Origin: Gemmatimonadaceae bacterium
GTDB taxonomy: Bacteria > Gemmatimonadota > Gemmatimonadetes > Gemmatimonadales > Gemmatimonadaceae
DNA: 64,000 nucleotides
NCBI GenBank assembly: GCA_045803545.1
Contig: JBJMOW010000005.1
Coordinates: 864,001-928,000 of the forward strand
Direction: 5' to 3'
The position numbers were made by a program, and so were the translations under genes. The notes under the pieces are model-generated. The model saw nothing but the letters and a program-made list of their open reading frames with translations, was not told the DNA's origin and did no database searches. Of the stretch, positions 53,956 through 64,000 are shown one piece after another. Within the stretch, counting starts at the first letter, position 1, and every line of letters starts with the position of its first letter.

Positions 53956-55302
53956 CTACCCAGCCAGACAGGCCTGGCCGGTTCCGTCGGAGACGGTATT
54001 CGCCGGATCGTTCGGATTGCGCGACCCGTTGAATCCCTGTCCTGCGGGCGGAATGTTGGTGTTCGTGAAGCGCTCGTTCGGATCGTAGTACATGCGACCG
54101 GGCATCTTCTGTCCCGCCTGAGTCGGCGCGAAGTTCGGAGTGCACGTGCGCTTGTAATCGTTCCACGCTTCGTGACCGAGCTGGAAATCGGCGATGTACT
54201 TCTCGGTCAGGATCTCATTGAGCAGCGCCTGTCCAGCGACTGCTTCGGGAGCCAGTCCGTGGTTGTCGCGCTCTTCGTTCAGCTTCGCCAATGCCGTCAC
54301 CTGATCGCCGGTCCGATAAGCCGCCTCGGCCCAGATCAGAGTGTTTTCATCGTACGAGACGAAGGTCTGCGGATAATTCGGAGCCAGCCTCGTTCCACTC
54401 AGGTTCGTCGCCGCGCCGTTGAAATAATCCTGGCGCCGCGGGTCACTACGCGTACTGAGCAGACTCACGAACTGCGGGTCCGGGATCAGATAACCACCGC
54501 GCCCGATCGTCAATTGGAACTGGTAGTAGAAGTTCGTCTCATTGGTGTTGCTGGTGAACGCGCCGAAGTAGTTCCCCGCGTCGGAGCTGATTCCCTGCTC
54601 CGCCTCGGCGAGCGCCGCCGCGTACGCCGCCTGTCCACGAACCTCCGCCGTGTGCATGTAGAATCTCGCCTTGAGCGTGTGCGCGAGCGCAGTCCACGCG
54701 TCGGTATCGCCGCCATAGACCAGGTCTGAAGCCACCGGCGGCGAATTCGTCTCCGCGGTGCTGGCCATATTGGCGATCGCTGCCGACAACACTTTCTGCA
54801 CCGAATCGTAAACCGTCAGCTGATTATCAAGCGGCGGGTTTAGTTCGTTGGTCAGCGCGTGCGAGTAGACGATGTCACCGAACAGGTCAGCGCCGGTTCC
54901 CATCGTGAGCCCTTCCTGTACCTGCAGGATGCCGAGCATCGCAAAGTTGTTCGCCTCCTTCGCGAGATTCTGCGCGCGCACGATGTCAACGAGACCACCG
55001 GCAGCGTAGAGACCGATGTTGAACCCGCTCTGAATGCCTTCGTCGTAGAGGTAGTTGTAGATGCTTTGGTACTGGTTCTGACCGCCGGCGAACTGACGCG
55101 CCCACATGCCCGTTACGCGCGCCGGATCGCTGCCGAGCAGCGCCCAAATGGCCCCCTCTGCGCCGGCGAACAACTGATTAGCCGTCGCAACTTGCGGCCG
55201 ATTCGGATCGTTGCTCAGATCCCCGCCCGTCAGATAATCACCTTTGCAGCTCGTCGCCGTCAGCCCGACGACAACGAGCGCGAGATATCGAAGTTTTATC
55301 AC
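53956..55302 (-). CDS. SusD/RagB family lipoprotein
   Basis: Lipobox ATSC; DPNRP, DLFGDIVYS, AHTLKARFY, EKYIA and EAWNDYKRT motifs. Confidence 0.92.
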   Translation of the reverse strand: MIKLRYLALVVVGLTATSCKGDYLTGGDLSNDPNRPQVATANQLFAGAEGAIWALLGSDPARVTGMWARQFAGGQNQYQSIYNYLYDEGIQSGFNIGLYAAGGLVDIVRAQNLAKEANNFAMLGILQVQEGLTMGTGADLFGDIVYSHALTNELNPPLDNQLTVYDSVQKVLSAAIANMASTAETNSPPVASDLVYGGDTDAWTALAHTLKARFYMHTAEVRGQAAYAAALAEAEQGISSDAGNYFGAFTSNTNETNFYYQFQLTIGRGGYLIPDPQFVSLLSTRSDPRRQDYFNGAATNLSGTRLAPNYPQTFVSYDENTLIWAEAAYRTGDQVTALAKLNEERDNHGLAPEAVAGQALLNEILTEKYIADFQLGHEAWNDYKRTCTPNFAPTQAGQKMPGRMYYDPNERFTNTNIPPAGQGFNGSRNPNDPANTVSDGTGQACLAG

Positions 55303-55318: not shown

Positions 55319-58300
55319 TTATCGGTTTAGGCTGAACGACAACACGAACGACCGCGACTGCGGATTGGCGAACCAATCGAGTCCCTGAGTGAGGTACTCT
55401 GCACCCGCGTTGTTCACTTCCGGATCGAGCCCGCGATACTGCGTCCAGGTCTTCAGGTTGCGACCCGAGATGCGGATGTCCGCCGAGCTGAATCCAGTCA
55501 GGTTCTTCAGGAACGGCCGATCGAGCGTGAAGCTCAGACTCAGCTCACGCAGCTTGACCCAGCCGGCGTCTTCCATGAATTGCTCGCCAGGACCCGTGAA
55601 TCCGCCGCCAGTGCCGACGATGCTGAGCCAGTTCTCCCAGTCCTCTGGCGTATTGAGGCCGACGACTCCAGTGCCGGGACCCGCGACGTCCGGATACGCC
55701 TTCGTATCCCAACTGACGCCGTACTGGCCGGTGCCGCCGCGCGCATCGGTGTCCTTGTGAGTACCAAAGACGTAGAGAGCGCCGCGAGTACCGTTGTATT
55801 GAGTGCCGCCCTTTTTGACATCGAGCAAGCCGGACAACGTGAACTTGTTCAGAATCTTGAGCGATGACGAGTAGGACATGGTGTACTTCGGATGCGGATC
55901 ACCGATGACCCTGATCGCTGGATCAGCGACCGGTAGGCCGTCCGGACCGAGGAACAGCGCGTTTCTCTTATATCCGCCGGGTGTTGCGCCGCAGAGAGCA
56001 TCGATGTCCTGATCCGCTGCGCCCATGCCCGGCACCGCGATGTGGGTTCCCGACCCGCAGTGCACGAAACCGGTGCCGATGATGACGCCCGGTGCGTAAC
56101 CAATCACGTCAGCGCCTTCAGCTTCGTTCGCGCCGAATCCTTCCAGCAGATCGAAGATCTCAGCGCCGCCAAGATCAGTGACCTTGCCGCGGTTGCGGCC
56201 GAACTGCACGCCGAATTCCCACGCGAGATTCTGCGAGGTGTAGGGGCGGGCGTTGAACGAAACCTCGATTCCCTTGTTCGACAGCGCGGCGGTATTCTCG
56301 AACGCGCTGAGGAACCCGGTCGCGGCCGCGTTCACCGTGATCGGAAGAATCACGTCGGACGATTTCTTGTTATAGCCGACGACCGACAGATCGACCTTCT
56401 GATCGAAGAAGCCGAGATCCGCGCCGACCTCGAACTCTTTCTGCAGCTCGGGACGCAGCGCTGGATTGCCGATCCTGGTGCTGCTGGTGACGCCCGGCAC
56501 GCCGCCGACCGTGGTGCGCAAAACGTCGCCGTAACTCGACCCAAACTGCACGACCGTGCTCAATGCATTGAGCGCTGCGTACACGTCCGGCTCGCGCCCC
56601 GTTTCGCCATACGCTGCGCGCAACTTGCCGAAACTGAACAAGCCGGTCGGCTCAGATCCGTGGAACAGATTGCTGAACGTCCAGGCCGCCGACGCTTTCT
56701 TGAAAGTGTGACGACGCTGTGAAGCTCCGAACGTCGAGAATCCGTCGTTCCGCAAGCCGGCGGTCAGGTAAATCTGGTTGTAAAGATTGAACTCACCTTG
56801 CCCGAAGTAGCTCTCGATGTGACGGAGCGACTTGTTCTCGATGGCCGCCTGCGAGATGGTGTTCTCGAGCGCAAGCGGAGTAGGCGCGATCAAGCCTTCA
56901 CCAACCGTCGTGTGTTGCCGATAGCGACGTGAGTTCAGGTTTTGACCGACCGTGAAGGTCGTGTTGAAGTTCTCGCCGCGATCGAAGGTCGCCGAGGCAA
57001 GCAGGTTGTGATCGATGATCAGGTTGTTCTGATCGTTGCGAATGACGTTACCAGCGCCGTCGTTCGCCGAGGTTTGCGGCAGCGCCTGGAGCCGTGAGTC
57101 GGTGTAGTAGTCGCCACCGATCGTCTCCTTTACGTTCAGCCACGTCAGTGGATGCCAGTCGACGTTGAAGTTGGAGATGGCGCGCCCGACTTCATCGCGA
57201 TTGCCGTTGCTCGAAGCCACGAAGAACGGATTGTCGTAATACGCGCAGCACCCGAATGACTCGACTGTCGTCGCATTCGGGAATCGATAGCTGCGCTGCT
57301 GGCCGTACTGATTGAGGTACGGCTCGTTGTTGAACGCGGGCGGCGTTCTGAGCGCGCCAAGCAGCAATCCGGAAACGTCGTTGCCGCGCTGCACGAAATT
57401 GCCACGCGCATCGACGTAATTGAAGTTGCCACCAAGCGTAAGCTTGCTGCTGACTTCCTGAGTGCCCTTGAGGCGGAAGCTGGCGCGATTGTACTTGTTG
57501 TTCGGCCCCTGGATGATGCCGTCCTGATTGGTGAGACCGACGGACGAGTAGAACGTCGTGCGATCGTTGCCGCCAGAAAGCTGAATGTTGTTATCCGCAG
57601 TGAGACCTGTTTTGAACAGCTCACTCAAGTGATCGTAGGTCTGCGTGCCCGCGGGCAGTTTCGCGCCCCACGATGTACGACCGGCCGTAGGTGCGCAGTC
57701 AGGCGTGTCACCGCAGGTCGCCATCGCATCGGGAATCGGTCGCGGATCCCCGTTTGCGTTTGTGCGCGCCAGCGAGCCCTGTGCGTAATCGTGCTGCAGG
57801 AAGTCGACGAGACGAGGTTTGTCCCACGACAGCGTCGAGCCAACGCTGATACGGGTTGGTCCGCTGCGACCACGCTTGGTCGTAATCAGTATGACACCGT
57901 TCGCGGCGCGCGCACCGTAGATCGCTGCTGCCGCCGAACCCTTGAGGATCTCGATGCTCTCGATGTCGGACGGATTGACGTCAGCCGCGCGATTGGTTGT
58001 TACCGTGCCACCCTGCCTGTCGGTGACTGAGCCGCTGCCGACACCAATCGCCATCGTTGCCGGCGACACGGTCTGGTTGTCGATCGGCTGGCCATCAACG
58101 ACGAACAACGGCTGGTTGGTACCGGTCAGTGACGCTTCGCCGCGGATGACGACCGATGCAGCTGCACCGGGCTCACCCGACTGAGTGCGCACGTTCACGT
58201 TCGGCGCTTTGGCGGCGAGCGCAGCAATCACGTTTTGCGGCTCGTTGGACCGACGCAGCGCGGAGCTGTCGACGCGATTGATCGTCACGCCCAGTCGCTC

Positions 58301-58678
58301 GCGTGTTGTCGTGGTTCCGGCGCCGGTCACCACGACTTCGCCGAGGTGGAACGGATTCACCGGCAGGGTGAAGTTCTGGTTGTTCGTTGCTCCGGGCGTG
58401 AGCGCAATCTGAACCGAGCGCGCGGTGTAGCCGATGACGCGCGCGGTCAATGTCGCGGTGCCGCCTGTCGCTCTGCTCGACGGAACGATGAAGGTGTAAC
58501 TGCCATCATCGCTGGTCGTGGCGCCGATGTTGGTACCGGCGAGGAATACGCTCGCGGCACCGAGTGGCGCACCCACATCGCTCGTGACACGGCCGGTCAC
58601 GGTCGTTCCGCTTTGCGCGAACGCCGCCGATGCCGTGAATGCGAGTGTGGTGACGAATGACAAGAATTGTCTTCGCAT
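55319..58678 (-). CDS. SusC/RagA family TonB-dependent receptor
   Basis: PLFVVDG, DIESIEILKGSAAAAIYGARAANGVILITTK and GLDPE motifs; adjacent to susD. Confidence 0.95.
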   Translation of the reverse strand: MRRQFLSFVTTLAFTASAAFAQSGTTVTGRVTSDVGAPLGAASVFLAGTNIGATTSDDGSYTFIVPSSRATGGTATLTARVIGYTARSVQIALTPGATNNQNFTLPVNPFHLGEVVVTGAGTTTTRERLGVTINRVDSSALRRSNEPQNVIAALAAKAPNVNVRTQSGEPGAAASVVIRGEASLTGTNQPLFVVDGQPIDNQTVSPATMAIGVGSGSVTDRQGGTVTTNRAADVNPSDIESIEILKGSAAAAIYGARAANGVILITTKRGRSGPTRISVGSTLSWDKPRLVDFLQHDYAQGSLARTNANGDPRPIPDAMATCGDTPDCAPTAGRTSWGAKLPAGTQTYDHLSELFKTGLTADNNIQLSGGNDRTTFYSSVGLTNQDGIIQGPNNKYNRASFRLKGTQEVSSKLTLGGNFNYVDARGNFVQRGNDVSGLLLGALRTPPAFNNEPYLNQYGQQRSYRFPNATTVESFGCCAYYDNPFFVASSNGNRDEVGRAISNFNVDWHPLTWLNVKETIGGDYYTDSRLQALPQTSANDGAGNVIRNDQNNLIIDHNLLASATFDRGENFNTTFTVGQNLNSRRYRQHTTVGEGLIAPTPLALENTISQAAIENKSLRHIESYFGQGEFNLYNQIYLTAGLRNDGFSTFGASQRRHTFKKASAAWTFSNLFHGSEPTGLFSFGKLRAAYGETGREPDVYAALNALSTVVQFGSSYGDVLRTTVGGVPGVTSSTRIGNPALRPELQKEFEVGADLGFFDQKVDLSVVGYNKKSSDVILPITVNAAATGFLSAFENTAALSNKGIEVSFNARPYTSQNLAWEFGVQFGRNRGKVTDLGGAEIFDLLEGFGANEAEGADVIGYAPGVIIGTGFVHCGSGTHIAVPGMGAADQDIDALCGATPGGYKRNALFLGPDGLPVADPAIRVIGDPHPKYTMSYSSSLKILNKFTLSGLLDVKKGGTQYNGTRGALYVFGTHKDTDARGGTGQYGVSWDTKAYPDVAGPGTGVVGLNTPEDWENWLSIVGTGGGFTGPGEQFMEDAGWVKLRELSLSFTLDRPFLKNLTGFSSADIRISGRNLKTWTQYRGLDPEVNNAGAEYLTQGLDWFANPQSRSFVLSFSLNR

Positions 58679-58867
58679 ACAACTCACTCCTTGAGTGTGA
58701 TGTTCGGAATGTGAGAGTGAGCGCAGGCGTGTAAAAGACTTTTTGCAGTTCCGAACTGGTTAAGGAGCTGTGCGCGATTTTTTACAAATCGCATACATGG
58801 CGGGCGCGTAGTAACGCAGGCGACCCCGCGTAACGCATCATATCTTCTCACGTACACCCGTCATTAC

Positions 58868-60613
58868 ATGTCACTGATCCGTCGTATGCGAGCATACGGA
58901 GCCCGCCCGCTGCTGCTCGGCGGGGCGCTTCTGGGAATCGTCGTGGTTGCGGGACTCGCGGCACTGGAGTCACACCGCACCTTCGTCGCGCGCAAAGCGT
59001 CCGCCGAACAGACGGTGCGCGATTACGCGAAGTTCGCGGCGTACCTCTATTCGACCCGGATCTATCTGTTCGCGCGCGAACGAACCTTCATGCCGTACGC
59101 GAAGTTCAACGCCGACGACCCGTACACGCGTGCCTCCCTGCCGCCGCTTTCTGCGATCCCCGCGAATACAGATTCGACGGAGAAGTGCGGACCAAACTGG
59201 ACCACTTATCGATTCCGCCTTGATCTACCGTCGGGCACGGTTCAATACCTGGGCGTTCGACCTCTGCCCGCAGTGGACCGGGCCATTCGCGACACGATCC
59301 CAAAGCTCGCCAACTCGCCCTGGGTCAAGCTCTCCGGATTCGGATACCTCTTCGTCGACCCACCGGGTGCGCCGAGAGAAGCGATTTCATACCTGCGAAC
59401 ACTCGACTCCGCTAAGAACGTCATAGCGGTTTACGGCTACCGGTCCTGCTACGGTGTGCGCGACACCATTGACTACGCGACCGTGCACAGGATCGTAAAG
59501 GTTTTGCCGCCAATGATCCCGGGGTATGGGGACTCTGCGTCGGATGCCCCCTCGGCGTGGTGCAAATGCGGCCCGAAAAAATCGGGAACCAGGAACGCCT
59601 CGGCCATGGAGCGGATGGCTGGCCCCTGGCCAAACGGCATGCCGGCGGATTCGCTACTGTATTTGAAGATCACTGACTTTCACGACCGCACCTTGTACCA
59701 GGTGCCTGCGCGCGGGAAATCTTCAGACTTGTACGGTGTCTCGCCCATCGGATACATCGGGGGCGTCTGGGTATGGGTCTCGTTGCGACCGGACGTCGCA
59801 AGGTTCCTCGTCGCCGGCGGCATCCCCGAGTCCCACGTCCCTGCGTCACTGGTGCTGTTCGGGGGCGCCATTGTGCTCGCAATCGCCGGGTTCGCTTCGC
59901 TGCGCAGTGAGGTCCGCCTCGTGCGGTCGCGAGAGCGGTTCCTGGCCAACGTCTCTCACGAGCTGAGGACCCCGCTCCAGCAGATCCTGCTCTTCGTCCA
60001 GCTGGTGCGGCTTGGCCGAACAAGGAGCGAAAGCGAGAAGGAGAAATCCCTCGAAATCATCGAGCGGGAGACGAATCGGCTGATTGCGTTGTCTAATTCC
60101 GTATTGACGGCCACCTCGACACCGGAGATGCAGCAACTGGAGTCGAGCGCGGTCGACGTCGCGGGCGTAGCACAAACGGCGGCGGATTTCTTCACACCTC
60201 TCGCGGAAGCTCGCAAGATGCGGATTGAACTGGACGTGGAGCAGCCGGCGGTTGCGCGCGGCGATCCGGGCGCGATCCGGCAGATCCTGATCAACGTGCT
60301 CGACAACGCCGCGAAGTACGGTCCGACGGGCCAGACGATCAAAATCGGTGTTCGCAAGAACGGGCCGATTGTCCGCTTATGGGTCGACGATCACGGCCCC
60401 GGGATCCCGCTCGCCGAGCGTAACAATGTCTGGCAACCCTTCGTAAGGCTGGGAGGGACAGTGGACGACAGCACCGGGGGGGCCGGACTCGGCCTCGCGA
60501 TTGTGCGCGACCTGGCTGCGGCGATGGATGCCCGTGCTGAGCTATCCGACGTCCCCGGGGGAGGCACCCGCTTCTCGCTGGATCTACACGCGAACCAGAA
60601 TGGGGCTCACTGA
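58868..60613 (+). CDS. membrane sensor histidine kinase
   Basis: Two TMs; SHELRTPL H-box; NVLDNAAKY, DHGPGI and GAGLGLAIV boxes. Confidence 0.94.
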   Translation: MSLIRRMRAYGARPLLLGGALLGIVVVAGLAALESHRTFVARKASAEQTVRDYAKFAAYLYSTRIYLFARERTFMPYAKFNADDPYTRASLPPLSAIPANTDSTEKCGPNWTTYRFRLDLPSGTVQYLGVRPLPAVDRAIRDTIPKLANSPWVKLSGFGYLFVDPPGAPREAISYLRTLDSAKNVIAVYGYRSCYGVRDTIDYATVHRIVKVLPPMIPGYGDSASDAPSAWCKCGPKKSGTRNASAMERMAGPWPNGMPADSLLYLKITDFHDRTLYQVPARGKSSDLYGVSPIGYIGGVWVWVSLRPDVARFLVAGGIPESHVPASLVLFGGAIVLAIAGFASLRSEVRLVRSRERFLANVSHELRTPLQQILLFVQLVRLGRTRSESEKEKSLEIIERETNRLIALSNSVLTATSTPEMQQLESSAVDVAGVAQTAADFFTPLAEARKMRIELDVEQPAVARGDPGAIRQILINVLDNAAKYGPTGQTIKIGVRKNGPIVRLWVDDHGPGIPLAERNNVWQPFVRLGGTVDDSTGGAGLGLAIVRDLAAAMDARAELSDVPGGGTRFSLDLHANQNGAH

Positions 60614-61362
60614 TGACACAACCGACTTCCTCCTGGCAGCCGTCACACAACGGAGACGCGGCGCCCAGCCGCAACATTCTGATCGTCGAAGACAACGAGA
60701 CGCTGGCGTTTGGTCTGCGCACCAGCCTCGAGGTTGAAGGCTACGAGGTTGAATGCGTGAGCGATGGCAACGTCGGCCTGGAGTGGCTGACCGATCACAC
60801 GCCGGATCTGATCGTCCTCGACCTGATGCTGCCCGGTCTCAACGGCTTCGAGGTGCTCCGTCGCTATCGCTCCAACGGCGGCAATGCCGCCGTGCTCATT
60901 CTCTCTGCGCGTGATCAGGAAGTCGACAAGGTGCAGGGATTCCGGATTGGCGCCGACGACTACGTGGTCAAGCCGGTCGGCGTGCTCGAGTTCCTGGCGC
61001 GCGTGGAAGCGTTGATGCGCCGGGTGAGCACGCCCGCGCGTGGGGGAGATGCGGGCCGAGGTGCGCTGCATCGCTTCTCCGACGTCGTCGTCGATTTACG
61101 CACGCGCACGGTCACGCGTAGCGGAAAGCAGGTCGATCTGAGCCCGATGGAGTTCGATTTTCTGGCGTACCTGATCGAGTCTGGTGGCGACATCGTTTCG
61201 CGCGACACGCTGATGCAGCGCGTCTGGCGCTACACCACCGGCGTCACTTCACGCACGGTCGATCAACACGTTGCTCGGCTGCGCAACAAGCTCGAGCCGG
61301 ATCCTGCGCAGCCTCGCCATCTCATTACTGTGCGCAAGGCTGGCTATCGCTTTCAGCTGTAA
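60613..61362 (+). CDS. OmpR/PhoB family response regulator
   Basis: IVEDN, LDLMLPG, GADDYVVKP and SRTVDQHVARLRNKLE...TVRKAGYRF motifs. Confidence 0.95.
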   Translation: MTQPTSSWQPSHNGDAAPSRNILIVEDNETLAFGLRTSLEVEGYEVECVSDGNVGLEWLTDHTPDLIVLDLMLPGLNGFEVLRRYRSNGGNAAVLILSARDQEVDKVQGFRIGADDYVVKPVGVLEFLARVEALMRRVSTPARGGDAGRGALHRFSDVVVDLRTRTVTRSGKQVDLSPMEFDFLAYLIESGGDIVSRDTLMQRVWRYTTGVTSRTVDQHVARLRNKLEPDPAQPRHLITVRKAGYRFQL

Positions 61363-61386: not shown

Positions 61387-61938
61387 TCACGCCCGCCGGT
61401 GATAATAGAAGTCGTACTCGGTCCTCCACGTTTTTCCGCCGTCACTAGATAACTCCGAGTGCTGGCGAACGGTGTCCTTGTCGACCGGCGTGAAGGTCAG
61501 TCTGATTGTCGTCTGCGTTGAACCGGCCGGCTTCCAGAAAAAGACCAGGCTCTCACCGTCGCTCTGACTCTCACGGTACTCGTGGACATCTCCGTCGGAG
61601 CCAATCCAGAATTGCTGCCATTGCTTAAGACGGGGACTGTAGGAATTGAGACTCTTTCCAGTTCCACCCTTGGCGCCGGTCCAATTCTCCAGCACCGCGC
61701 ACCCGTTACTGGTGCTTTCGATGACACTGTCGCCGACATGGGTGCCGTCTTCGGTTTTGACATCCCACGCGCCGATCCAGAAGTCAAAGCGATGACGTTC
61801 AGGATCGTCCGCGCACGAATAGGGTGCGGCGGTCGAGTTAACCGCCTGACTGGCCGAGCTGGAGCTCGCCTGCGCAAAGGTTCCTTGGCCACCGAGCAGC
61901 GCAAACGCCGCGAATGTGAGTCTGATCGTTAATCTCAT
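61387..61938 (-). CDS. exported hypothetical beta-rich protein
   Basis: AGGAG SD; signal peptide; C...HRFDFWIGAWDV, GKSLNSY and SSDGGKTW motifs. Confidence 0.75.
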   Translation of the reverse strand: MRLTIRLTFAAFALLGGQGTFAQASSSSASQAVNSTAAPYSCADDPERHRFDFWIGAWDVKTEDGTHVGDSVIESTSNGCAVLENWTGAKGGTGKSLNSYSPRLKQWQQFWIGSDGDVHEYRESQSDGESLVFFWKPAGSTQTTIRLTFTPVDKDTVRQHSELSSDGGKTWRTEYDFYYHRRA

Positions 61939-61970: not shown

Positions 61971-62047
61971 TCCGCCGAGCAAAGCGAAGAAACGCTCGGG
62001 TTGATTGGGGTACTCTTAGACATCGGCACATCGCTTTGCTCGGCGGA
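61971..62047 (-). ncRNA. candidate TIGR-like guide RNA: one 36-nt dual-spacer unit in the loop of a 17-bp stem
   Basis: Perfect 17-bp IR TCCGCCGAGCAAAGCGA. The minus-strand loop reads TG-TGCCG-ATGTCTAAG-AGTACCCCA-ATCAACCCG-AGCG-TTTCT. It lies 22 bp downstream of the Nop-fold gene. Confidence 0.55.
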
Positions 62048-62069
62048 TATCCGAATTAGTGCAGGGTGG

Positions 62070-62945
62070 TTAGGCGGTAATCCTCGGGTGATACGGGCGC
62101 ACGATCGGCAGGTTCAAAGACTTTCGCCACGCAATCCATAGGTTGCGGAGGAAAGCCTTCTCCATTTTTCGGAGCGCGGCGAGATGACTGCGCTTGGCGG
62201 TCCAGCCCTCCCTTTCGGTCGCCAGCCTCTCACGCTCGGCGTCGTAGTAGGTTCGGTAATCGCTTCCGCAGCGCAGCATCGAGACGCCAATCAGATAGCA
62301 TGACTTCCGAGCATGCGCATCGTAGCTGTTGCGACCACCGACTACGCTGCGGCGGGGCGCCACGCGCGTCGTATCGTCGTTAATCAGCTGCAGATGGCCG
62401 CTGCACAGACGCGAGCCGGCGCGGGTGAAGTGCGTGTCACCCAGCTTGTAGCCCGCCGGCATTCCGACCTCGAGCTTGCAGCGCGGGCACTGATAAGCGT
62501 TGCCGGGGATGGTCGCGAGGCCACAGTACGCCCAGAACGCGGACGGCGTTTTTGCGCGAGTGACATCGAGCCGGGATAGAAGTCGCGCGGCAAGCAGCTC
62601 GCCGACTCCACGTTGCTCCGACATCCATTGCCACGCCGGATGAGAGTCGATCGATGAGCGCAGCGCCACTGCGGCATCGTTCTCGTCTTCGCTCGCGCGC
62701 CAATACGCTTTCTCCAGAACTCGTGGTGCGCCGGCAGTTTCTCCGCGCGCGATGACCTTCAGCAGCGAGTCAGCATCACCCGCGATGCTGCCAACTCCAT
62801 CGAACGAGCGACCCTGAAAGAGCGCCCGCAGACGCTCGCCATGGGCGATGCGCGAGCGCTGCGCATCCTCGTAGAGCTGATATAGCAATCGGAGGTCGTG
62901 CGCGGCCTCGTTCGAGTCGGACAAGCGCTGAAGTGATGTCGCCAT
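62070..62945 (-). CDS. IS110/Nop-fold RNA-binding protein without RuvC (TasA-like), with a Cys/His insertion
   Basis: Coiled-coil N-terminus LYQLYEDAQRSRIAHGERL; HPAWQWM..RGVGELLAARLL; SAFWAYCGL; C-terminal HLAALRKMEKAFLRNLWIAWR..NLP...PY. No DEDD domain. Confidence 0.75.
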   Translation of the reverse strand: MATSLQRLSDSNEAAHDLRLLYQLYEDAQRSRIAHGERLRALFQGRSFDGVGSIAGDADSLLKVIARGETAGAPRVLEKAYWRASEDENDAAVALRSSIDSHPAWQWMSEQRGVGELLAARLLSRLDVTRAKTPSAFWAYCGLATIPGNAYQCPRCKLEVGMPAGYKLGDTHFTRAGSRLCSGHLQLINDDTTRVAPRRSVVGGRNSYDAHARKSCYLIGVSMLRCGSDYRTYYDAERERLATEREGWTAKRSHLAALRKMEKAFLRNLWIAWRKSLNLPIVRPYHPRITA

Positions 62946-63031
62946 GCTGATGATTTGGTGTTGGTCCAGGCAACGCTACAGCGCGGCACGCACTCACAGT
63001 GTTTACGTCCAGTAAAGTTTTGGCAGCGGTG

Positions 63032-64000
63032 TTATTGCTGAGGGCAAGCGTCGAATCGCTCCACCAGAGTGCTGCCACTCGCTGAGTGACTCATTCCGAC
63101 AACCGGGTTTCCGCCAACCAGCCAGACCGCGCCGCGAAAGACAACTGCGCGCGCGTAATTCCGTGGCGTGCGCAGCGGTGCAGCGTGCTCCCATTGGTTC
63201 GTTGCTGGATTGAGCCGCAGCACTTCGTCGAGCGTGGATTTGTGCGCCTGTGATTCTCCACCGAAGACGTAGATGGCCCCGCAGTAGAGCGCAGCGCCAG
63301 CAGTGCCGCGGGGCTCGATTGGTGGACCAGCCGTCCAGAAGTCGCTTTGGGGGTGGTAGATCTCGACATCGCCGAAATCTCCCGGACCACTTCGACCACC
63401 GATCGAGTAGAGCTTGCCGTTGTAGGCGAGGGCCGACGGACTCCCTTTCGATCGTGACAATGGCGCCCGCTCCGTCCAGCGATTCGTGGCGGGATCGTAC
63501 TCCGAATGGTTGGCGAGAGTCGATCGTGAATTCCCCCCACCGATGACGTGAATCCTTCCATCGAGTACTGCCGCGGCGTGACCGCCACGTGGCTCTGCCA
63601 ATGGAGCGGCGGTACTCCAGCTGTGGGTGTCGACGTCGTAGACGAGGACGTCGGAGCTGGGAACGTTGGTCGTGGTCTTGAATCCGCCGATGATGTAGAT
63701 GCGTCGACCAATCACCGTCGCCGTCGGGGCGTTGAGTCCTTCGCCTGGCAGCCTGGTTTCATCTCGCCATTGAGTGCCGTCAAAGCGCTCGACTTCCAGC
63801 ACCGGCTGGCCGCCGGCGCCGGTGCCGCCAATCGCGTAGATCGCGTCGCCGGTGCTGACAACCGCGTGCGCCGAGCGGGCGTGAATCAACGAAGGGGCGT
63901 CGTACCACTCGCCGGTGGAGCGATTCGCCGAGAGACTCGCGCATCCGCAAAGCGTTGCCGCAACCGAAAACCTCGCGCACGCGCTCAGAGTTACCGCGAG
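63032..64000 (-). CDS. Kelch-repeat beta-propeller protein (5' end outside the window)
   Basis: Six repeats with GG..Y/F..W pattern; the frame stays open to position 64000. Confidence 0.9.
   Translation of the reverse strand, partial: LAVTLSACARFSVAATLCGCASLSANRSTGEWYDAPSLIHARSAHAVVSTGDAIYAIGGTGAGGQPVLEVERFDGTQWRDETRLPGEGLNAPTATVIGRRIYIIGGFKTTTNVPSSDVLVYDVDTHSWSTAAPLAEPRGGHAAAVLDGRIHVIGGGNSRSTLANHSEYDPATNRWTERAPLSRSKGSPSALAYNGKLYSIGGRSGPGDFGDVEIYHPQSDFWTAGPPIEPRGTAGAALYCGAIYVFGGESQAHKSTLDEVLRLNPATNQWEHAAPLRTPRNYARAVVFRGAVWLVGGNPVVGMSHSASGSTLVERFDACPQQ

Follow-up and report, generated by a model that had tools for sequence, protein, structure and literature searches.

The closest described relatives of the locus reported here are TasA proteins encoded with stem-loop TIGR arrays, as the available text of three reports describes them for PlTasA, BlTasA and MbTasA (PMC12045711; 10.64898/2026.09.09.750476; 10.64898/2026.08.11.744272). 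Like them, the 291-aa protein encoded in the 64,000-nt stretch of DNA that we analyzed (the window, part of genome G000) is a solo Nop/coiled-coil protein with a short C-terminus. Its RNA unit resembles the stem-loop TIGR units in its dual spacers of ~9 nt, symmetric C/D boxes, 4-nt gap, extra G-C pair beside the box and palindromic stem, and it follows the 36-nt tigRNA layout of Faure et al. except for an AG box D (PMC12045711). The locus differs from a standard TIGR array in being a single unit with fixed spacers and AG box D, placed in a chromosomal synteny. In their accessible portions, Faure et al. (PMC12045711) and Xu et al. state that little is known of what TIGR spacers target in nature or of their native roles. 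The term "Gemmatimonad" does not occur in the main text of Xu et al. or in those supplements of Faure et al. that were examined, and our literature search returned no paper joining TIGR or TasA with Gemmatimonadota (bioRxiv supplements or TIGRSafari may list such loci) and, among the matches listed, none joining a tigRNA with SusC.

Two further RNA-guided factors are instructive for comparison. TldR is a domesticated TnpB, nuclease-less and with one conserved guide; in the published sections available, the fliC_P-linked form targets the promoter of a host paralog of its linked gene, and the oppF-linked form uses a short guide against a transporter promoter (10.1101/2023.11.30.569447). The system in the window is likewise nuclease-less with a single conserved guide, and the favoring of its own SusC/D that we propose below would parallel fliC_P-linked TldR and flagellin. 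However, TldR has a Cas12-like fold and a single spacer with a TAM, whereas the guide described here is split over both strands and is predicted to have coding targets as well. In Bacteroidetes, dCas12f-sigmaE exerts RNA-guided control over susCD operons from loci next to susCD (accessible text of PMC12259090). Location beside susCD and RNA-guided susCD control, here proposed, are common to both, but dCas12f-sigmaE is an activator that needs a sigma factor and an HTH partner, neither of which is conserved in our loci, and its scaffold is unrelated.

The 291-aa protein is a nuclease-less, TasA-like member of the Tas family. It scores 239.7 bits against the NCBIfam TIGR_Tas model (NF052498, cut-off 100), and a profile built from 40 homologs found only TasR (9MTY, 1e-17) and TasH (2.5e-6) as significant PDB sequences. 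The AlphaFold2 model (pLDDT 91, pTM 0.86) is closest to the Tas proteins, with VIA Z scores of 19.3 for TasR and 18.5 for TasH, followed by IS110 (13.8) and Nop5 (8.1), which have the RNA-binding fold in common with it; it aligns with TasR at an rmsd of 2.2 over 193 residues, and Foldseek returned 9MTY at E 4e-9. The Nop/Tas fold assumed in the original prediction, made from sequence alone, was thus recovered, and two other features that it had described also hold, namely the lack of an N-terminal nuclease and of a catalytic-Ser loop after SAFWAYCGL. The open frame reaches just 10 codons further upstream (301 aa) and the modeled coiled-coil helix begins at residue 10, leaving no room for an N-terminal nuclease; no longer homologs occurred among 8000 candidates, which is weak evidence on this point. 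After SAFWAYCGL there is an insertion of ~60 aa in the wedge position, where the only S-G (residues 182-183) has a variable Ser. The insertion contains C153, C156, H172 and C181, each invariant in 40/40 close homologs and kept in 95-103 of 145 wider homologs, and may constitute a metal site; an atlas search with the insertion was uninformative (best score 0.77). Nop5 of box C/D snoRNPs is characterized by a fibrillarin-binding N-terminal domain, K-turn RNA and RNA targets; the protein described here has no N-terminal domain, and a scan of the RNA unit found no Rfam family above chance (one match, E 4.7). A homodimer model reached an ipSAE of 0.52 (best control 0.00; pLDDT 81; contacts at least 96% in agreement between runs), a mark that 20 of the 30 solved homodimers attain and that 1 monomer out of 23 attains, though likeness to solved Tas dimers may explain the score; its interface is formed by helices 17-38 and 74-94 of the coiled coil.

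Table 1. Features of the locus, as positions in the 64,000-nt window.
Feature	Position	Strand	Remarks
tasA-like gene, 291 aa	62070..62945	-	coiled coil and Nop C-terminal domain, without nuclease
C-x2-C...H...C motif, residues 153-181	62403..62489	-	putative metal site
Stem-loop tigRNA-like unit, single	61971..62047	-	stem arms 62031-62047 and 61971-61987
Spacer A ATGTCTAAG	62015..62023	-	box C 62024-62026 (CCG), box D 62013-62014 (AG)
Spacer B ATCAACCCG	61997..62005	-	box C' 62006-62008 (CCA), box D' 61995-61996 (AG)
4-nt loop between half-units	62009-62012	-	
Putative tasA promoter region, conserved	62972..63016	-	from upstream listing of loci; presumed role
TTTAC-N5-GTA(A/G)ACA motif	62999-63016	-	
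-10-like element	62972-62980	-	
Exported protein gene	61387..61938	-	directly 3' of tigRNA; variable neighbor, 19/39 loci
OmpR-type response regulator	60613..61362	+	convergent with tasA; Pfam Response_reg and Trans_reg_C; 38/39 loci
Sensor histidine kinase	58868..60613	+	divergent from susC; Pfam HisKA and HATPase_c; synteny
Linked SusC/RagA TonB-dependent transporter	55319..58687	-	TIGR04056 510 bits, TIGR04057 60.9 bits
Signature codons V-N-P-S-D-I of linked susC	57963..57979	-	mismatched to spacer B
Lipoprotein gene after susC	53956..55302	-	presumably SusD/RagB-like, by position; no NCBIfam match
Kelch-repeat gene	63032..63889	-	upstream; Pfam Kelch; 15/55 loci

The structured unit that had been proposed 22 nt past the tasA stop codon is indeed there, as a perfect 17-bp inverted repeat enclosing 43 nt. 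The hairpin folds with z = -2.8, none of 200 shuffles being as stable, and has the strongest stem among 39 scaffold-like matches in the genome (-36.5 kcal/mol, the next -20.6). The layout GCC(N)-9-nt spacer A-AG-4 nt-CCA-9-nt spacer B-AG-CG recurs in all 61 close loci that have at least 110 nt of flank. Positions 1-6 of spacer A are nearly invariant and positions 7-10 are free in sequence and length; of the 63 close-clade units, 53 have the same spacer B, and the changes in the remaining 10 are C>U or A>G, so that wobble pairing is kept. The stem is always paired while its sequence varies (z < -2 in 61/61 distinct units, with 58 distinct 5' arms), showing compensatory change at 9 of 15 consensus stem pairs in 45 sequences of the 61 distinct units, and conservation is higher in the 36-nt loop core than in the stem. 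A strict scaffold match occurs once per locus in 69 of 73 loci, and the window's genome has one strongly stemmed unit; what we found is thus one unit with fixed spacers and not a tandem array of several units with variable spacers. Box D is AG at both positions instead of the canonical UG or CG. Boxes of TIGR units are described as divergent yet covarying in the accessible text of Faure et al. (PMC12045711), and covariation holds in the clade of the window. Regarding the 3' flanks of homologs, the expectation of a conserved stem and boxes was confirmed but that of variable 9-mers was not, the spacers being fixed in the clade and differing only between sub-clades. Four further guide types have the same scaffold with different spacers, and 11 more distant homologous loci had no recognizable unit 3' of the gene, upstream or within it. 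Five metatranscriptome runs gave a share of 0.06-0.10; in four runs, parts of tasA are represented by short contigs, one of which runs across the end of the gene and the hairpin, the assembled contigs carrying neither strand nor RNA ends.

Homologs of the protein numbered 390 among the 8000 candidates, and those with names are from Gemmatimonadota. Matches to tas were present in 26/109 genus genomes, 20/401 family genomes and 9/401 phylum genomes (5 strong), as a single copy in the genome of the window, and a scan of genome contigs for the locus found 2 loci only. Viral contigs yielded only two distant Tas relatives with 27-32% identity. The gene is under purifying selection in Gemmatimonadaceae, with a median dN/dS of 0.21 and a maximum of 0.36 (54 distinct intact genes, 756 usable pairs out of 1431). 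GC content is flat over the region. The chromosomal setting without IS or phage hallmarks was as originally described, but the Kelch and exported-protein genes then given as its context vary (Table 1); the constant neighbors of tas are the response regulator and SusC/RagA, the latter within 4 kb of tas in 18 of 23 loci. The Kelch gene is probably outside the system, and the exported-protein gene has no NCBIfam family. Upstream of tasA, the TTTAC-N5-GTA(A/G)ACA motif occurs in 63 of 75 rows, the misses being mostly rows without flank; by its likeness, it may be a site for the adjoining OmpR-type regulator. Family, structure, selection, synteny and RNA covariation bear out the idea of a TasA-like protein with one fixed stem-loop guide, and we consider it practically certain that the locus comprises a Tas protein plus a tigRNA. 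There is very little doubt, in our view, that the system is host-domesticated. The notion of a host-co-opted regulator, also part of the original prediction, gains support and now has a concrete candidate target in the SusC/RagA genes.

In TIGR geometry the two spacers read opposite strands, A one and B the other, at neighboring positions separated by 0-2 bp. The guide of the window has no perfect target; in its own genome the canonical 18-bp geometry and three other spacer orders gave at best 3 mismatches, which is chance level. A weighted scan of the genome put a 17-bp site first; this geometry (8+8 nt, 1-bp gap) was picked after the data were seen and is one of 8 tried. TasR tolerates a 1-bp gap between half-sites, according to the available text of Faure et al. 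(PMC12045711). With the 17-bp geometry just 2 sites in the genome have 2 or fewer mismatches (shuffled guides, mean 0.42), and both are intergenic and upstream of susC, in a genome that is ~91% ORF-covered and has ~15 susC genes. One (C6:16145-16161) covers the TTGACA of a susC promoter whose -10 element lies 17 nt on, and the other (C2:1194042-1194058) stops 3 nt before another susC TTGACA. Both are kept in G710 (=G721) as conserved islands in diverged flanks, the G710 site matching that genome's own spacer A at 8/9 positions. The C2 site is absent in G036, and in four other genomes the C6 susC has orthologs with different genes upstream and without the site; G757, an unpublished genome and one of these four, is counted together with G743 among the genomes in which tas was not found, and neither of the two underlies any positive claim. 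Scanning the susC genes of G036, G597, G656, G650, G688, G621 and G580 revealed no promoter site, and the same was true of 19 held-out rows, of which 18 had flank and the best match had 4 mismatches; in G036 (98% complete) the 17-bp geometry gave nothing better than 3 mismatches. Across susC upstream regions, sites with 3 or fewer mismatches to the own guide occurred in 5/101 as against 0/115 for a non-cognate guide, in a count that left out 3 loci without recognizable signature and regions shorter than 200 nt. The best matches within the tas loci themselves have 3 mismatches and overlap with the guide.

Some other places in these genomes were recorded along the way. A 16-bp site with 3 mismatches in G000 and G656 (G000:C5:143050-143065; G656:C14:30502-30517, L511) lies in a palindromic operator upstream of a BlaI/MecI-like repressor gene and was set aside as operator conservation. 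The region G000:C6:8000-26000 (L111) holds a cluster of three SusC/SusD-like pairs, within which ~6 kb separate the best promoter site from the distant paralog. At G762:C145:5735-5751 (L618), the opening codons of a susC-like gene show weak similarity to a spacer-B match, and the same contig carries the distant paralog.

The core of the guide corresponds to the codons I-N-P-x-D-I of the SusC signature. It has 4 exact matches in the genome, all susC-associated, and matches pile up in the TIGR arrangement only (P = 1e-4 against shuffles, P = 0.03 against a genome-word null). Coding sites typically pair at 13-14/16, and most of them have a mismatch at U6, a nearly invariant position of spacer A. 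Partial pairing has a precedent in TasR, which engaged a site with full spacer B and 6/9 of spacer A in the part of Faure et al. that describes it (PMC12045711). Exact core matches in susC coding DNA are as frequent in other genomes (8/40) as in carriers (14/60; p = 0.81), while AAC after Ile is enriched in carriers' susC (20/28 vs 11/30, p = 0.01).

Carriers usually have two copies of one SusC subfamily, which is present in 25 of 26 tas-positive genomes vs 10 of 83 genomes in which tas was not found. Positions 1-8 of spacer B match the distant paralog in 10/10 genomes but the linked susC in 0/23 rows (0/12 genomes and 0/11 metagenome loci, some of them near-duplicates). In genomes fetched after this prediction, the match was present in 6/7 distant paralogs vs 0/12 linked susC genes, two of the latter being assigned across a contig break. 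Pooled, spacer B matches the distant paralog in 16/17 genomes and the linked susC in 0/35 loci, a contrast for which Fisher values overstate the significance because relatives are not independent. Linked copies lose the match by varied changes, including the rare codons ATA, TTA and CTA; in those susC genes Ile is encoded by ATC in ~77% of cases, and Asn before Pro by AAC in 28-42%. On a SusC tree of 34 rows (3 near-duplicate linked rows left out) linked and distant labels interleave, with at least 4-5 forced changes, so the contrast in matching does not stem from one inherited event. Genomes in which tas was not found present a mixed picture. Among their SusC-subfamily copies 4/7 match spacer B; G792 has a two-component/susC locus without tas or tigRNA in ~1.4 kb of flank and its linked susC keeps the match, and in G796 and G784 the tas-less two-component-linked susC is mismatched too. 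In 9 of the 26 tas-positive genomes a second paralog was not detected; these 9 are mostly fragmented assemblies.

A sister clade (G250, G688 and G621) has an unrelated guide, and in G250 this guide matches 16/16 at a site that precedes a susC start by 37 nt. The 401 family genomes contain no other perfect match to it; five matches with 1 mismatch lie in other genomes. This target was not found in G688 or G621, so that one of three genomes with the guide has it, and viral matches to the 16-mer (at least 120) were treated as chance. For the guide of G580 no susC target was found (best 4 mismatches).

Taken together, these observations suggest the following mechanism. A TasA dimer would bind the single fixed stem-loop tigRNA encoded just 3' of its own gene, and the guide would read double-stranded DNA in the TIGR geometry described above, its two spacers recognizing neighboring stretches of opposite strands. 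Its targets would be SusC/RagA genes elsewhere in the chromosome, at the I-N-P-x-D-I signature codons, and in some lineages additionally a susC -35 box or 5' UTR. As the guide leaves the variable signature codon unpaired, several paralogous transporter genes could be silenced. Binding without cutting may block initiation or elongation. TasA represses in E. coli reporters and nuclease-dead TasH from a promoter or an ORF, going by the available text of the respective reports (10.64898/2026.09.09.750476; 10.64898/2026.08.11.744272). The linked susC would escape by mostly synonymous changes that break its spacer-B match, and the locus may in this way favor its own two-component-controlled SusC/D over the paralogs. 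Processing of the RNA, formation of an RNP, binding to DNA, repression and the purpose in the cell are our inferences. Judging from sequence matches, susC genes are likely the targets, and if they are, repression would be highly probable. The entire reading, a host-domesticated RNA-guided repressor silencing rival SusC paralogs, is one that we favor, but our confidence is held at a moderate level by the invariant U6, by carriers in which no target was detected, by the geometry chosen post hoc and by the relatedness of the genomes.

The true target of the Tas protein and its fixed tigRNA might instead lie elsewhere, in a mobile element or in a gene missing from the assemblies, which we consider unlikely. 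The susC matches would then be partly coincidental, since I-N-P-x-D-I is a multi-copy motif, and the imperfect pairing, the unexplained U6, the lack of a clear target in G036 or G580 and the equal rate of core matches in non-carriers would fit. Placed before reverse spacer B, spacer A would also read as M-S-x-R-V-D, like the start of a gene. This gene-start reading was rejected: six-frame searching gave 2 genome matches, both poor against the guide DNA, hence no fitting gene start in the own genome, and the 26 viral 18-bp matches are heterogeneous and form no coherent gene-start family. Also speaking against a target elsewhere are the perfect susC site of an unrelated guide, the two promoter sites kept in both G000 and G710, and the linked-versus-distant contrast that was repeated in held-out genomes.

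Another way to read the same susC targets is that the complex activates or tunes transcription, for example through DNA bending or through contacts of the Cys/His insertion with RNA polymerase or the response regulator. The site ending 3 nt upstream of a -35 box would suit an activator, as would the activation of susC promoters by dCas12f-sigmaE (available text of PMC12259090) and the RNA-polymerase alpha-CTD-like/HhH N-terminus of a distant homolog, P0125. However, the other promoter site covers TTGACA itself, a further one is in a 5' region, and most are found ~700-800 nt into the ORF, at which position nothing but a roadblock is plausible; avoidance of the match by the linked copy fits escape from repression. 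Activation or other tuning is improbable. A purely structural or autoregulatory role of the RNA, for example in repressing the tasA promoter with no DNA target in trans, appears very improbable: spacer A does resemble the GTA(A/G)ACA of that promoter (mean 6.3/9), but 49 distinct guide-promoter pairs show no covariation (permutation P = 0.76), and for spacer B no more than 1.5-3.6 of 8 positions pair with the promoter. IS110 transposases have an N-terminal DEDD domain and a catalytic Ser loop and are mobile, multi-copy and variable in context, and a truncated IS110 remnant beside an ordinary terminator hairpin, to which weak matches to Pfam Transposase_20 and NCBIfam IS110 (NF033542, 20.7 bits vs cut-off 140) might point, can be dismissed as extremely improbable, given that the protein lacks a DEDD/RuvC-like domain and a conserved catalytic-Ser loop, scores far above the Tas cut-off, is single-copy, of fixed length and synteny and under selection (dN/dS ~0.2, contrary to the refuting case of remnants under no purifying selection), and that the loop core is conserved beyond the stem.

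With silencing of SusC paralogs as the preferred reading, the guide, fixed and conserved across species, leads to named candidate chromosomal targets, and the linked susC serves as a built-in negative control. If the reading is true, the range of TIGR-Tas, with its phages and CPR bacteria, widens to include a domesticated regulator of common soil bacteria, with a rare natural target and self/non-self discrimination by synonymous codons. The unit with AG box D would represent a natural non-canonical scaffold, suited to testing how little pairing a binding-only Tas needs. In a broader formulation that we favor only slightly, this would be a single-guide transcription factor of free-living Gemmatimonadota whose split guide reads SusC codons, whose linked susC was recoded, whose guides were re-aimed at susC 5' regions in sister clades, and which arrived at susC control independently of dCas12f-sigmaE.

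Several observations concern the wider family. SusC-like or response-regulator genes often come directly behind the more distant Tas homologs as well. In a sister clade (L005, L085-L091, L101, L102) the tigRNA lies between tas and a gene that resembles LytTR genes, with susC next; in L102 it is partly within the 3' end of tas. The guides 3' of tas in L076, L078 and L083 can be read, as spacer B plus reverse spacer A, as a start codon and signal-peptide n-region (M-P-R-R-L; M-N-R-L-L). Tas homologs with 34-46% identity and no recognizable guide occur in L097-L100, L104-L108, L006 and L007, with susC-like genes directly after tas in L097, L100 and L104 and response regulators in L006 and L105. 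Contigs C308 and C298 of G774 (L660, L670; assembly with 3% contamination) hold between them two full-length copies of tas whose spacer A sequences differ slightly. Among proteins with additional domains, P0163 and P0260 have LAGLIDADG insertions, intein-like in P0163 as it also has a Hint domain, and P0125 is the homolog with the N-terminal alpha-CTD-like/HhH domain mentioned above. In the viral contigs L092 and L093, distant Tas genes are followed by apparent canonical dual-repeat TIGR arrays.
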